A stretch of DNA of 64,000 nucleotides from Reyranellaceae bacterium (lineage in GTDB: Bacteria; Pseudomonadota; Alphaproteobacteria; Reyranellales; JAQSWP01): assembly GCA_050181585.1 (NCBI GenBank), contig JBFXDA010000001.1, positions 98,126 to 162,125 of the forward strand, read 5' to 3'. Shown one piece after another: positions 38,001 to 53,519 of the stretch. The notes under the pieces were generated by a model. The model searched no databases. It was given only the letters and a program-made list of their open reading frames with translations, and had not been told where the DNA came from. Every line of letters begins with the position of its first letter. Position 1 is the stretch's first letter. The translations under genes were made by a program, and so were the position numbers.

Positions 38001-38735
38001 ATGCTCGATCTGATCATCCTCCTGGCCGCGGTGGCGCCGGCCTTTCTGGTATTGCGCATCTTCATCCGCTGGGACCTGTTCCCGGAGCCCAACCGCGTCA
38101 TCCTGGCCACGTTCTTCTGGGGCATGGTCTCGGTGATCCCGGTGCTGGCGATCGGCTATGTCGCCTACGAGCCGCTGATGGCGATCCAGGACCCGTTCTG
38201 GGGGCCGGTGGCGGTGGCCTTTCTCGGCGCGGCGATCCCGGAGGAGCTGACCAAGTTCGCCGTGCTGTTCTTCTACTGCATGCGGCATTCGCATTTCGAC
38301 GAGCCGATGGACGGTCTGGTCTACGGCATGACCGCGTCGCTCGGCTTCGCCGCGCTGGAGAACATCTTCTACCTGATGAGCGCCGGCCCCGACTGGGTCG
38401 AGGTGGCGCTGCTGCGCGCCTTCCTGTCCGTGCCCAGCCACGGGCTGGACGGGGTCCTGATGGGGTTCTTCGCCGGTCTGGCGCGGTTCGAGCCGCAGCG
38501 CGCCGGCCGCTGGTGGCTGCTGTGCCTGCTGGTGCCGATGTCCCTGCACGGGCTCTACGATGCGCCGCTCTTCCTCGCCGGCATCGACGAGCCGGCGGGG
38601 TCGGGAGGCGAACAGGCGGCCTTCGTGCTGGTGCCGCTGCTGGTGGTGGCGATCCAGCTCGTCTGGGCGATCTGGCTGTTCCGCCGCCTCAACCGCGACC
38701 AGCAGGCGCTGCTGGCGCGCCAGGCCAGCCAATAA
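38001..38735 (+). CDS. PrsW family intramembrane metalloprotease
   Basis: Motifs IPEELTKF (EExxK), GFAALEN and HGLYD are present in a polytopic 244-aa protein. Confidence 0.7.
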   Translation: MLDLIILLAAVAPAFLVLRIFIRWDLFPEPNRVILATFFWGMVSVIPVLAIGYVAYEPLMAIQDPFWGPVAVAFLGAAIPEELTKFAVLFFYCMRHSHFDEPMDGLVYGMTASLGFAALENIFYLMSAGPDWVEVALLRAFLSVPSHGLDGVLMGFFAGLARFEPQRAGRWWLLCLLVPMSLHGLYDAPLFLAGIDEPAGSGGEQAAFVLVPLLVVAIQLVWAIWLFRRLNRDQQALLARQASQ

Positions 38736-38886
38736 GGCCGGCGCATCGGGTTTCGCGGCGTGGCGGCATGTCCTCGACAGGGGCGGAACGATTGGCTATA
38801 CGCCTGACGGTGCTTGTGAATATATCCGCCACCCTTCGTTCCGCGGCAGGCCGCGCCGCCCGCCTGGATTAAGCAGCCCGAGTTCC

Positions 38887-39927
38887 ATGGCCGATCCGCA
38901 GGAAAAACCGCCCGCCCAGCCCCGCCTTGCCGTTCGTATCGTCGGTACCCTGGTATCGTTCGTGGTGGCGGTCGTGCTGACCGCCGCGTTGGCCGAGATA
39001 TTCAGCCGCGTCGTGGTCGATGACGGCATGCATTTCGATCTGGAAATGTGGAAATACGCCAAGGAGATCAAGCGCGAATCCGACGTTCCCGGCCTGGGCC
39101 ACGAACACCGGCCCAGCACTGCCGGCCACTTCATGGGCGTGCCGGTGTCGATCAACGCGCTGGGGCTGCGCGACCGGGACTATACGCCTGCCAAGCCCGC
39201 GGGCGCGGTGCGCATCGTGATGCTGGGCGATTCGGTCACCTTCGGCTGGGGCGTGCGCATCGAGGACACGCCGTCGAAGATGGTCGAGCGCCTGCTCAAC
39301 GCCGGCACCGCCGCGCCGCGCTACGAGGTGATCAACACCGGCGTCGGCAACTACAACACGGTGCAGGAAGTCACCTATTTCCTGAACCGCGGGCTGCAGC
39401 TCGATCCCGACATCGTGGTGCTGAACTACTTCATCAACGACGCCGAGCCGACGCCGCTGCGCAAGCAGAGCGCGCTGGCCGAACGTTCCTACGCCGCCGT
39501 CGCCGGGCTCAGCGCCTTCGACACGCTCTCGCGCGCCTATTTCGGCAAGGCCGACTGGCGCGAATACTATAGCAACCTCTATCGCCCCGATGCCGCCGCC
39601 TGGCAGGCGGCGCAGCAGTCGATCCGCGATCTCGCCCGCCGCTGCCGCGAGCGCGGCATCAAGCTGCTGATCGCCAACTATCCCGAACTGCACGTGCTGC
39701 AGGACTATCCCTTCGCCGCCGTCACCCAGGCGGTGCGCGCGCTGGCCGCGGCCGAGAACGTGCCCTTCGTCGACCTGTTGCCGTCGGTGGCGGCGCTGCC
39801 GCCGGAGTCGCTGTGGGTCTCGCCCACCGACGCCCATCCCAACCGGATCGCCAACGAGCGCTTCGCCGCCCTGCTCGCGGCCGAACTGCGCAAATCCTTT
39901 CCCGACCTGGTCGCGGCGGGAAACTGA
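38887..39927 (+). CDS. membrane-anchored SGNH/GDSL hydrolase family protein
   Basis: An N-terminal TM helix is followed by block I IVMLGDSVTFGWG, block III YFINDA and block V PTDAHPN. Confidence 0.7.
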   Translation: MADPQEKPPAQPRLAVRIVGTLVSFVVAVVLTAALAEIFSRVVVDDGMHFDLEMWKYAKEIKRESDVPGLGHEHRPSTAGHFMGVPVSINALGLRDRDYTPAKPAGAVRIVMLGDSVTFGWGVRIEDTPSKMVERLLNAGTAAPRYEVINTGVGNYNTVQEVTYFLNRGLQLDPDIVVLNYFINDAEPTPLRKQSALAERSYAAVAGLSAFDTLSRAYFGKADWREYYSNLYRPDAAAWQAAQQSIRDLARRCRERGIKLLIANYPELHVLQDYPFAAVTQAVRALAAAENVPFVDLLPSVAALPPESLWVSPTDAHPNRIANERFAALLAAELRKSFPDLVAAGN

Positions 39928-52217: not shown

Positions 52218-52232
52218 CCGGGCGGAAGACGG

Positions 52233-53519
52233 CTAAAGCCGCCACAGCTCGACGCCGGCCGGGATGGCGCTGCGGTCCAGGACGGCCTGGACGTCGACCA
52301 CCAGCCCGCGCTTCTGCCGCAGGCAGGATTGCGCCAGGGTCCAGCCGCCCTTGACGAACTGCTCGTGCGCGACGGCCAGGATCACCGCATCGGCCGGCGC
52401 CAGCGCGTGCCTGGGCGTCAGCTCGATGCCGTAATGCATCCGCATCTCGCCGGCGTCGGCCAGCGGATCGTGCACCTGCACCTGGATGCCGGCACCCTCC
52501 AGCTCGCGCACGATGTCGACGCAGCGCGTGTTGCGCACGTCGGGCACGTTCTCCTTGAAGGTGGCGCCCAGGATGGCGACCGTGGGCCGGCCGCTCAAGC
52601 CGCGCGCCATCAGCCGCTTGATGGTCTCGCCGGCGACGAAGCGGCCCATGCCGTCGTTGACCCGGCGGCCCGCCAGGATGACCTGCGGGTGGTAGCCGAT
52701 CTGCATCGCCTTGTGCGTCAGGTAGAAGGGATCGACGCCGATGCAGTGCCCGCCCACCAGGCCGGGGCGGAAGGGCAGGAAGTTCCACTTGGTGCCGGCG
52801 GTCTCCAGCACGTCGCGGGTGTCGATGCCCAGCCGGTGGCAGATCAGCGCCATCTCGTTGATCAGCGCGATGTTGAGGTCGCGCTGGGTGTTCTCCAGCA
52901 CCTTGGCGGCCTCGGCCACCTTGATGCTGGCGGCGCGGTGCAGCCCGGCCTTGACGACGCTGCCATAGACCCGCTCGACGATGTCGAGCGTGGCGGCGTC
53001 GCAGGCGGCGATCACCTTGCGCACGCTGTCCAGCCGATGGGTGCGGTCGCCCGGGTTGATGCGCTCGGGCGAATAGCCGACGGCGAAGTCCGCACCGCAC
53101 GCCAGCCCCGATTCCCGCTCCATCGCCGGCACGCATTCCTCTTCCGTCAGGCCGGGATAGACGGTGGATTCGAACACCACCACGTCGCCGCGCTTCAGCC
53201 CGTGCTTGCCCAGCGTGCGCGCCGCCGACAACAGCGGCTGCAGGTCGGGCACGTTGGCCTCGTCGATCGGGGTCGGCACGGTGACGATATGGAAGTCGCT
53301 GCCGCGCAGCTCGGCGGCGCGGTCGGTGAAATGCAGCGTGCGCTGCTGCAGCTCCTCCAGCTCGATCTCGCCGGTGCGGTCCTGGCCGGCGCGCAACTGG
53401 GCGACGCGCTGCGGGTCGTGGTCGTAGCCGAGAACCGCGCCCTGGCGCGCGAAGGCCACGGCCACCGGCAGGCCGACATAGCCCAGCCCGGTGACGGAGA
53501 CCTTGCGCCCGTGCGGCAT
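52233..53519 (-). CDS. nucleotide-sugar 6-dehydrogenase (UDP-N-acetyl-hexosamine dehydrogenase-like, TviB/WbpO/VipA type)
   Basis: VSVTGLGYVGLPVAVAFA is the Rossmann motif and GGHCIGVDP holds the catalytic Cys. 428 aa. The ATG at 53519 was chosen. Confidence 0.8.
   Translation of the reverse strand: MPHGRKVSVTGLGYVGLPVAVAFARQGAVLGYDHDPQRVAQLRAGQDRTGEIELEELQQRTLHFTDRAAELRGSDFHIVTVPTPIDEANVPDLQPLLSAARTLGKHGLKRGDVVVFESTVYPGLTEEECVPAMERESGLACGADFAVGYSPERINPGDRTHRLDSVRKVIAACDAATLDIVERVYGSVVKAGLHRAASIKVAEAAKVLENTQRDLNIALINEMALICHRLGIDTRDVLETAGTKWNFLPFRPGLVGGHCIGVDPFYLTHKAMQIGYHPQVILAGRRVNDGMGRFVAGETIKRLMARGLSGRPTVAILGATFKENVPDVRNTRCVDIVRELEGAGIQVQVHDPLADAGEMRMHYGIELTPRHALAPADAVILAVAHEQFVKGGWTLAQSCLRQKRGLVVDVQAVLDRSAIPAGVELWRL

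Follow-up and report, generated by a model that had tools for sequence, protein, structure and literature searches.

The described systems closest to the gene cluster reported here are found in lipopolysaccharide (LPS) core pathways. In Acinetobacter baumannii, the "ELM1-like" protein A1S_2903 is KdoT, which transfers a third 3-deoxy-D-manno-oct-2-ulosonic acid (Kdo) from cytidine monophosphate (CMP)-Kdo to Kdo2-lipid IVA or Kdo2-lipid A, and GnaT (LpsB) acts after KdoT by adding N-acetylglucosaminuronic acid (GlcNAcA) from uridine diphosphate (UDP)-GlcNAcA (PMC10936431, PMC12856342). KdoT carries a conserved C-terminal SRRT motif, the second Arg of which is required for function (PMC12856342). 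In Pseudomonas, the NodU-family carbamoyltransferase WapO (PA5005) is encoded inside the core oligosaccharide cluster beside msbA (PMC8005017). Here, we describe a ∼15 kb cluster of 14 genes (G1 to G14, Table 1) at positions 38001-53519 of a 64,000-nucleotide stretch (hereafter, the window) from a metagenome-assembled genome (MAG) of a Reyranellaceae bacterium, an alphaproteobacterium, contig JBFXDA010000001.1. Our favored explanation, which we hold at about even confidence, is that the products of this locus assemble a short, anionic oligosaccharide on an existing membrane lipid and decorate it, the acceptor most likely being Kdo2-lipid A as in an LPS or lipooligosaccharide (LOS) core. An initial annotation made from the sequence alone had described the region as a mosaic of tailoring and export genes with no recognizable backbone synthase. 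It had proposed, among other products, a multiply decorated oligosaccharide or glycolipid, which is the product class that our analysis also points to.

The absence of a backbone synthase is less of a puzzle than it had seemed. The cluster encodes an ELM1-family GT-B glycosyltransferase (G12) and two enzymes with a GT8-type fold (G9 and G7), so that a short glycan would be made by the locus itself on a lipid already in place. Together with a predicted UDP-GlcNAc 6-dehydrogenase (G14) and an ATP-binding cassette (ABC) exporter of the lipid flippase type (G13), these three glycosyltransferases would follow the logic of an LPS/LOS core locus. The general kind of system, a locus for the assembly and decoration of a lipid-linked surface oligosaccharide, is well known. 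What is new is the set of enzymes, the likely sulfation, an unnamed GT8-like family, and the link of that family to the recently described KdoT family.

The protein that ties the locus to KdoT is G12. It scores 173.3 bits against the PF06258 (Mito_fiss_Elm1) model, which has a cut-off of 27, and the identical protein is listed at NCBI under the name "ELM1/GtrOC1 family putative glycosyltransferase." The SRRT motif of G12 spans residues 221-224. In a 22-sequence alignment, S211-R212-R213-T214 was invariant, and S-x-R-T was present in 40 of 40 ELM1 homologs taken from related loci. An AlphaFold2 (AF2) model of G12 (predicted local distance difference test score, pLDDT, 89.7) adopts a two-Rossmann GT-B fold that was matched by Foldseek to UDP-GlcNAc 2-epimerases, UrdGT2, MshA, WaaG, and EarP; a sequence search of the PDB with G12 returned no match. 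Based on the family assignment, the motif, and the modeled fold, G12 is predicted to be a GT-B glycosyltransferase of the KdoT family. The sizes of the two proteins are ∼370-380 aa for G12 and ∼35 kDa for KdoT. Like the Acinetobacter system, the locus also has a predicted supply of UDP-N-acetylhexosaminuronic acid and an adjacent gene for a second, retaining glycosyltransferase, and by analogy it may use a lipid-anchored acceptor with cytoplasmic assembly followed by flipping. It differs in that the partner enzyme is a GT-A, GT8-like protein rather than the GT4 enzyme GnaT, and in that a sulfotransferase, a methyltransferase, and a dedicated ABC exporter are also part of the module. Homologs of G12 in loci L001-L083 fall into SRRT, SART, SPRT, and SSRT motif classes, and loci with several ELM1 genes often pair a SRRT-type gene (42-48% identity to G12) with the other types, which suggests that the classes have differing donor or acceptor specificities.

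The partner glycosyltransferases, G9 and G7, are 57% identical to each other. Neither reached the gathering score of the GT8 family model PF01501 (16.9 bits for G7 against 24.3; no match for G9), and PF01501 was carried by one of 120 G9 homologs among the matches listed. The AF2 model of G9, built from 16 sequences (pLDDT 80.5), was matched in the PDB mostly to retaining glycosyltransferases of the GT8/GT24 type with a GT-A fold. The top matches were GlyE, an Anaerococcus GT8 protein, LgtC, XXYLT1, and glycogenin (probability 1.0, TM-score 0.41-0.54), and LARGE1 was matched as well. D95-P96-D97 (the DxD site), His194, and a QPWK motif are invariant in the alignment of the family. G9 and G7 are therefore modeled as GT-A/GT8 glycosyltransferases. 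They are alike to the GT8 enzymes of LOS/LPS cores (LgtC and the WaaI/J/O type) in the GT-A fold, DxD site, conserved His, and C-terminal (Q)PWK, and unlike them in falling below the Pfam GT8 cut-off as a separate family. A MAG protein at NCBI (locus tag AB7R90_00730) matches G9 with 100% identity, and a database search returned more than 5800 clusters of homologs, every named one of which is called "hypothetical." These homologs occur in Alpha- and Gammaproteobacteria, with single MAG matches assigned to Myxococcota and Spirochaetales, and 60-65% identity is retained across classes, Gammaproteobacteria included. NCBIfam has no model for G9 or G7, nor for G3, G5, G6, G10, and G12. Judged by sequence, the GT8-like proteins appear to be a distinct family without a Pfam or NCBIfam model and with unusual conservation.

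The remaining enzymes of the core module can be assigned with varying precision. G10, whose stop codon lies 3 nt from the start of G9, contains a KSGRTW sequence resembling the 5'-phosphosulfate-binding loop, and its nearest solved structures are SULT (SULT1) and Teg12. A homolog of the methyltransferase G11 was found near the GT8-like gene in 5 of the 48 larger loci described below (L007, L024, L061, L063, and L071), and a Pfam-annotated methyltransferase occupies the equivalent position in L169. G14 passed TIGR03026 (373 bits, cut-off 189.8); its best model was TviB (NF011729; 454.6 bits, cut-off 592). Orthologs of G14 with 88-89% identity sit at the corresponding site in L007 and L085, and the enzyme is predicted to supply UDP-GlcNAcA or a related donor. 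For G13, which the initial annotation had called an MsbA-type exporter, the fused ABC_membrane/ABC_tran architecture was borne out, and none of the NCBIfam equivalog cut-offs was reached (HepA 262.5 of 725 bits, MsbA 213.4 of 602, MsbA_rel 178 of 780, and PglK 187.9 of 1000). A sequence search of the PDB with G13 gave mostly eukaryotic ABCB proteins and was uninformative. An ABC gene is found beside the module in L001, L007, L029, L030, L058, L061, L071-73, L079, L085, L087, and L169. From its sequence, G13 is best described as a flippase of the type that acts on lipids or lipid-linked glycans.

To define which of these genes belong together, 77 loci around G9 homologs were searched with all window proteins, and neighbors were counted in the 48 loci of at least 15 kb. 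A G10-like sulfotransferase was present in 35 of these and an ELM1 gene in 29, followed by the ABC exporter (7), the methyltransferase (5), the TviB-like dehydrogenase (2), and the carbamoyltransferase, SxtJ, and DUF5989 genes (1); no SGNH gene was found. Among 70 evaluable loci, 38 have the sulfotransferase gene immediately upstream of a GT8-like gene in the same orientation, and 40 have an ELM1 gene no more than 5 kb away. The GT8-like/sulfotransferase/ELM1 trio thus recurs in many Alpha- and Gammaproteobacteria. Genes that concern LPS sometimes stand beside it. LptF/LptG genes adjoin the module in eight loci from both classes (L001, L013, L020, L024, L032, L035, L060, and L063), and a gene for a lipid A late acyltransferase (PF03279) adjoins it in four. 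In Defluviicoccus vanus, the order is ELM1-sulfotransferase-GT8-LptF-LptG-sulfotransferase, with the module on both sides of lptFG. The cultured Algihabitans albus carries ABC-ELM1-x-ELM1-x-x-methyltransferase-GT8-ELM1-sulfotransferase-GT8-fatty acid hydroxylase-GNAT-like, then lptF (with lptG expected next), and then a lipid A acyltransferase gene. A Geminicoccaceae isolate has a minimal ELM1 and GT8-like pair alone, an arrangement that parallels, by analogy, the KdoT/GnaT two-step. Two small families resembling 2-oxoglutarate (2OG)-Fe(II) oxygenases neighbor the GT8-like gene in 13 and 8 loci (e.g., L046 1891-2625 and L051 14347-15024); neither occurs in the window, and they may resemble lipid A and Kdo hydroxylases.

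Judged by gene content among relatives, the locus is demonstrably a composite of an accessory cassette (38736-46191) and a core module (46192-53519), in keeping with the mosaic character first ascribed to it; relatives carry one part or both. The core module holds the GT8-like gene G9 and the sulfotransferase, methyltransferase, ELM1, ABC, and TviB-like genes. The accessory cassette holds the SxtJ-DUF5989-carbamoyltransferase genes, three anchored SGNH-like proteins, and the second GT8-like gene, G7. In L007 (80% identity to G9), the order PuuD-cytochrome c-TviB-ABC-ELM1-methyltransferase-sulfotransferase-GT8B-PrsW-acyl-CoA dehydrogenase shows the same flanks and core module, with no gene between GT8B and PrsW. 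In L085/L086 (73% identity to G9), the order is TviB-ABC-ELM1-GT8B-SGNH(G8)-GT8A-ELM1-SxtJ-DUF5989-carbamoyltransferase-x-SGNH(G2)-x-PrsW. The accessory part is kept there at 66-90% identity and an extra ELM1 gene is present, without the sulfotransferase and methyltransferase, and L085 is collinear across nearly the whole cluster at 57-90% amino acid identity. The G7 ortholog in L085 has 78% identity and the same position. Co-occurrence of all the components across genomes, as the initial annotation had proposed to check, therefore holds in close relatives only; the carbamoyl/SGNH part is unlinked to the GT8-like/sulfotransferase/ELM1 part in 47 of the 48 wider loci. In L070, the carbamoyl trio lies ∼5 kb from a sulfotransferase-GT8 pair. 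We propose that the site between the cytochrome c/PuuD genes and PrsW is hypervariable, with a conserved core and a swappable carbamoyl/SGNH/GT8A cassette. Surface-glycan loci typically gain and lose decoration genes while their flanks are conserved, and the variation at this one chromosomal site therefore counts toward a locus of that kind. At the edges of the 7.4-kb accessory segment we found no long terminal repeats, integrase, transposase, or GC shift. A megablast of the 15.5 kb against plasmids gave single-gene matches only (carbamoyltransferase and dehydrogenase), so no characterized locus collinear with this one came to light.

The carbamoyl genes of the accessory cassette, G4 to G6, were compared with 80 metagenomic loci fetched around relatives of G4 (65-78% identity), of which the 45 of at least 7 kb were counted. 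SxtJ and the carbamoyltransferase were present in 45 of 45, with DUF5989 between the two in 44. Their neighbors include NAD-dependent epimerase/dehydratases, methyltransferases, TviB-like dehydrogenases, asparagine-synthase-like proteins, DegT aminotransferases, GT2 enzymes, and Wzx-like proteins. Since the trio recurs mostly in such sugar-nucleotide and polysaccharide contexts, the sxt names would reflect a generic O-carbamoylation unit, and SxtJ-DUF5989-carbamoyltransferase is best read from its distribution as a generic O-carbamoylation cassette. The saxitoxin analogy is therefore not supported. The sxtI-sxtJ-sxtK genes of the saxitoxin cluster have the same carbamoyltransferase, SxtJ, and DUF5989 unit; no other sxt genes are present here, and the trio is widespread in polysaccharide-type contexts, so that the cyanobacterial toxin cluster appears to have taken over a generic cassette. 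The nearest solved structures to G4 are NovN, GdmN, and TobZ, and its score against the NodU equivalog model NF041651 was 158.7 bits, with a cut-off of 1000. By hydropathy, G6 has three hydrophobic segments and G5 has one. On a plasmid of Ensifer sp. PDNC004 (L084, 10006-18633), the trio stands with two membrane-anchored SGNH-like genes, without glycan genes nearby, and adjoins a HisKA_3 histidine kinase/LuxR-type response regulator pair, under whose control the cassette may be.

The waa/wap cluster of Pseudomonas likewise has an O-carbamoyltransferase of the NodU superfamily and an ABC lipid flippase among core glycosyltransferases, and cytoplasmic decoration would, by analogy, be placed on the core in both. 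In Pseudomonas, the cluster contains heptosyltransferases and heptose kinases and the charge is supplied by phosphate, whereas no heptose genes are present here and the sulfotransferase may supply charge; G13, moreover, is not an MsbA equivalog. We know of no SxtJ or DUF5989 partner of WapO.

The three membrane-anchored SGNH-like proteins of the cassette, each with a single N-terminal membrane segment by hydropathy, were only partly confirmed as such: G2 exceeds the PF13472 cut-off and G3 and G8 fall below it. G2 has a GDS motif and a hydrophobic segment at residues 18-36. In G3, with its transmembrane segment at residues 4-22, GGS replaces GDS and DxxH is lacking. G8 has GDS and DHTH motifs and a transmembrane segment at residues 4-22. 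Homologs of G2 (45-58% identity) occur near the carbamoyl trio in metagenome loci and in Ensifer (ortholog, 58%), a G3-like homolog (32% identity) is directly upstream of the GT8-like gene in L087, and the G8 ortholog in L085 (66% identity) adjoins GT8A. Also recurrent beside the carbamoyl trio are N-terminally anchored SGNH-like proteins of several families that diverge from one another. Pairwise BLAST among G2, G3, G8, and the 419-aa Ensifer protein revealed motif-like patches and no significant similarity, which indicates that G2, G3, and G8 are not recent paralogs. Anchored SGNH-fold proteins in a surface-glycan locus, with G3 weakly AlgX-like, resemble the AT3/SGNH and AlgX/AlgJ-type O-acylation systems; unlike those, the cluster contains no MBOAT or AT3 gene as acyl donor partner, and G3 is without the canonical GDS and DxxH. 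A solitary Acyl_transf_3 (AT3) membrane acyltransferase is encoded 27 kb from the cluster. Proteins of the AT3 type often pass acetyl groups to periplasmic SGNH domains, and this one is a candidate partner of G2, G3, or G8.

From the domains, folds, motifs, topology, and linkage, all of which were computed, we infer the following route step by step. At the cytoplasmic face of the inner membrane, the KdoT-like G12 would put a Kdo-type acidic sugar on the lipid acceptor, G14 would produce UDP-GlcNAcA or a similar uronic donor, and the retaining GT-A enzymes G9 and G7 would attach α-linked sugars. The TviB-like dehydrogenase in the module would, by analogy, mirror the Acinetobacter logic of Kdo and then GlcNAcA. 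G10 would sulfate the glycan from 3'-phosphoadenosine-5'-phosphosulfate (PAPS), G11 would methylate it from S-adenosylmethionine (SAM), and G4 would O-carbamoylate it from carbamoyl phosphate and ATP, perhaps while tethered or regulated at the membrane by SxtJ and DUF5989, which is a guess. The donors (PAPS, SAM, carbamoyl phosphate/ATP, CMP-Kdo, and UDP-sugars) occur in the cytoplasm, and hydropathy analysis assigned no membrane segments to the carbamoyl-, sulfo-, methyl-, and glycosyltransferases or to the dehydrogenase; because of this, sulfation, methylation, carbamoylation, and glycan assembly are all placed at the inner face. G13 would then flip the finished lipid-linked glycan, G2, G3, and G8 would edit O-acyl groups, probably on the periplasmic side, and Lpt would take the product to the outer membrane.

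Several observations weigh against an LPS core as the product. Scans of the 64-kb window found no lipid A, Kdo, waaA, heptosyltransferase, or O-antigen ligase gene, and literature searches yielded no description of sulfated LPS cores from these lineages. G13 is not a canonical MsbA (213 versus 602 bits), and a second dedicated flippase is unneeded for an LPS core. G12 is tied to KdoT by family, SRRT motif, and fold rather than by a direct comparison of the two sequences, and its best structural matches are generic GT-B proteins (UDP-GlcNAc 2-epimerases) and not WaaA. A locus can have as many as 3-4 ELM1 paralogs, and these may act with other donors; in some genomes, such as L006, the GT8-like gene is solitary. 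The acceptor itself is brought into question by lipid genes in other loci. In L001, L058, L072, L073, and L079, the ABC gene is beside an α-oxoamine synthase (PF00155, E=9e-54) like serine palmitoyltransferase, and in these five loci the synthase also sits between ELM1 genes. A PP-binding carrier protein gene, identified by Pfam annotation, stands beside the synthase in L001. In L030 (1577-8456), the ABC gene is instead beside fatty-acyl-AMP ligases, and among the module loci there are also genes for a Tam41-like protein and for a lipid kinase of the DAGK_cat type. This lipid sub-module (e.g., L001 1-3200 and 13150-15100, L073 4535-15267) is found in several Gammaproteobacteria and some Rhodospirillales. 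The proximity of synthase, carrier protein, and ligase genes to the ABC gene hints at a different lipid anchor.

These genes are the chief reason to consider that the product is the head group of an outer-membrane glycolipid other than LPS, namely a sulfated glyco-sphingolipid or glyco-aminolipid whose lipid genes lie elsewhere in the genome and for which G13 is the dedicated flippase. The fatty acid hydroxylase and GNAT-like protein that follow the module in Algihabitans would fit such a lipid, and a private flippase that is no MsbA equivalog best suits a private lipid. However, none of these lipid genes, the Tam41-like and lipid kinase genes included, is in the window or in L007 and L085, its close relatives; in no locus was a ceramide synthase or reductase recognized, and the sole characterized ELM1 enzyme works on Kdo2-lipid A. 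The adjacency of lptFG and lipid A acyltransferase genes also favors LPS, though Lpt could conceivably carry other lipids. We consider this explanation unlikely, if the most serious of the competing ones.

A product linked to undecaprenyl phosphate strikes us as improbable. Such a glycan would serve as an O-antigen unit, as a unit of exopolysaccharide or capsule, or as the donor for protein glycosylation, and it would be primed by a transferase encoded elsewhere and flipped in the manner of PglK or HepA. HepA, which serves heterocyst polysaccharide export, and PglK are among the best NCBIfam matches of G13, the carbamoyl trio usually keeps company with polysaccharide genes (epimerase/dehydratases, DegT, GT2, and Wzx-like), and TviB-type dehydrogenases are typical of capsule and O-antigen loci. 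On the other hand, the scores of G13 are all far under the cut-offs, the region has no gene for a priming phosphoglycosyltransferase, polymerase, chain-length regulator, ligase, oligosaccharyltransferase, or outer-membrane export, and the core module is conserved together with ELM1 and lptFG-type genes rather than with Wzx/Wzy or Wzm/Wzt. Pathways of the Wzx/Wzy, Wzm/Wzt, and KpsMT types were rejected, as none of their Pfam families was found in 38.0-53.5 kb or the flanks. The Pfam and NCBIfam scans of the cluster and flanks likewise found no NodABC, polyketide synthase (PKS), or nonribosomal peptide synthetase (NRPS) genes, in agreement with the initial annotation.

That unrelated small transcription units have come together by chance, with no common product, had been named as a reading that would undo the cluster, and we regard it as very improbable. 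The strand changes seven times within the cluster (at least six changes had been claimed), the two modules are unlinked in nearly all wider loci, and the Ensifer plasmid has the carbamoyl/SGNH set with no glycan genes nearby. Nevertheless, both modules are collinear together in L085 and L086, the second GT8-like paralog sits within the accessory cassette, the trio of L070 and the G3-like gene of L087 lie close to GT8-like genes, and the sulfotransferase and ELM1 genes accompany the GT8-like gene in more than half of the evaluable loci. Comparative gene order thus indicates that the grouping is not chance. Hardest to credit is a Nod-factor-like or saxitoxin-like system that tailors and exports a secreted oligosaccharide or small molecule with scaffold genes elsewhere, for while carbamoyl-, sulfo-, and methyltransferases occur together with an exporter, as in the NodU, NodH, NodS, and NodIJ set, and SxtJ and DUF5989 match their Pfam models, G4 fails the NodU cut-off by a wide margin, the exporter is of the fused type IV and not ABC-2, no NodABC, NodIJ-type ABC-2, sxtA, or other sxt gene (sxtG, sxtB) is among the scanned proteins, the trio is generic and intact in non-toxin contexts, and three LPS-core-type glycosyltransferases are present.

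If the LPS/LOS core explanation is correct, the KdoT route, a WaaA-independent way of adding Kdo to the core, would reach from Acinetobacter and Rickettsia to many environmental Alpha- and Gammaproteobacteria, and a highly conserved GT8-like family with neither name nor profile model would gain its first functional context. It would predict LPS cores, or related glycolipids, that are sulfated, methylated, and carbamoylated. Core charge bears on outer-membrane stability, resistance to cationic peptides, phage and tailocin receptors, and immune recognition, and sulfate in place of phosphate would suit phosphate limitation. In addition, sxtJ and sxtK would be partners in a generic glycan carbamoylation cassette and not specific to saxitoxin. 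We further offer, as a tentative idea that we would not expect to hold in full, that the ELM1/sulfotransferase/GT8-like trio is the signature of a widespread, uncharacterized pathway that equips the outer membrane with an acidic, sulfated glycolipid. One candidate is an LPS inner core that contains Kdo and bears sulfate instead of the usual core phosphates. Where the α-oxoamine synthase, acyl carrier protein, and acyl-AMP ligase genes join the module, the product could instead belong to a novel class of sulfated glyco-sphingolipids or glyco-aminolipids served by a dedicated ABC flippase. Literature searches on sulfated LPS core, sulfotransferase with Kdo, and sphingolipid with sulfotransferase clusters found no account of the ELM1/sulfotransferase/GT8-like module. 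Practical value is limited for now, as the source is a MAG; cultured carriers are Algihabitans albus, Defluviicoccus vanus, and Aquibaculum spp.

The gene map (Table 1) was drawn from third-position GC content and frame pattern, because spurious open reading frames are abundant at the ∼70% G+C of the window, and then from Pfam and NCBIfam scans. All genes listed in the initial annotation were recovered at their positions, and its boundaries essentially fit, with the exception of PrsW (G1). Look-ups by exact sequence with G4 and G9 gave no entry. The PrsW gene adjoins the locus in L007 and L085, with or without the accessory cassette, and is probably a conserved left flank; it was rejected as a functional member of the cluster. 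Farther upstream, the flank is housekeeping in nature, with MgtC-like, malonyl-CoA decarboxylase, rhomboid, and acyl-CoA dehydrogenase genes. The downstream flank, likewise housekeeping, comprises cytochrome c, PuuD-like, DUF4189, ApbA, and a CysTWA-type sulfate transporter. The transporter lies ∼4 kb downstream of the cluster, and its proximity to a sulfotransferase gene is probably coincidental, because L085 (1-2436) keeps this flank and has no sulfotransferase.

Table 1 Positions, strands, and supporting matches of the cluster genes and of other features in the window.
Feature	Position	Strand	Evidence
G1, PrsW-family intramembrane protease	38001-38735	+	Pfam PF13367, E=7e-38
G2, SGNH/GDSL hydrolase, membrane-anchored, accessory cassette	38887-39927	+	PF13472, 56.7 bits (cut-off 32.9)
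G3, SGNH/AlgX-like, membrane-anchored, accessory cassette	39931-41136	+	PF13472, 28.7 bits, and PF16822, 25.1 bits; both below cut-off
G4, O-carbamoyltransferase, NodU/CmcH/TobZ superfamily	41295-43130	-	Carbam_trans_N, E=2e-107; Carbam_trans_C, E=5e-75
G5, DUF5989 (SxtK-like) single-pass membrane peptide, 49 aa	43152-43301	-	PF19451, E=2.5e-24, 85.5 bits; translation confirmed
G6, SxtJ-family membrane protein	43321-43755	-	PF19588, 32 bits (cut-off 24.4)
G7, GT8-like glycosyltransferase, paralog A, accessory cassette	44044-44979	+	PF01501, E=0.005; identity to G9
G8, SGNH-like, membrane-anchored, accessory cassette	45020-46117	+	PF13472, 28.7 bits, below cut-off
G9, GT8-like glycosyltransferase, paralog B, core-module marker	46192-47088	-	GT-A/GT8 fold model; no Pfam match
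G10, PAPS-type sulfotransferase, Sulfotransfer_1	47092-48009	-	PF00685, 69.7 bits (cut-off 22)
G11, class I SAM-dependent methyltransferase, start codon uncertain	48128-49090	+	Methyltransf_25/11/31
G12, ELM1/GtrOC1-family GT-B glycosyltransferase, KdoT-like	49095-50237 (NCBI start 50207)	-	PF06258, E=8.5e-51
G13, ABC exporter, fused membrane and ATPase domains, start uncertain	50436-52217	+	ABC_membrane and ABC_tran
G14, TviB-like UDP-N-acetylhexosamine 6-dehydrogenase	52233-53519	-	All three UDPG_MGDP_dh domains
139-nt structured repeat, two direct copies	37850-37988 and 41160-41298		∼94% identical; copy 2 between the convergent ends of G3 and G4
AT3 membrane acyltransferase	10374-11543	+	Acyl_transf_3
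Acyl-CoA dehydrogenase	36627-37862	-	
CysT/CysW/CysA-type sulfate ABC transporter	57538-63712	-	Two BPD_transp_1 permeases; ATPase with TOBE_3 and CysA_C domains

A structured repeat of 139 nt was also detected in two direct copies, which bracket PrsW, G2, and G3 rather than the accessory cassette. The mean column identity of the copies is 93% over 156 aligned columns, and a compensatory A-T to G-C change in one stem separates them. The predicted fold consists of three hairpins and a closing terminal stem (-87.5 kcal/mol, z = -14.8). The repeat has no Rfam match, there being none over 37-54 kb, and it was present in none of 168 fetched loci. It could be an element like a repetitive extragenic palindrome (REP) or a miniature inverted-repeat transposable element (MITE), a bidirectional terminator, or a novel RNA. 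The annotated start of the acyl-CoA dehydrogenase gene falls inside the first repeat hairpin, and the real start is probably further downstream.

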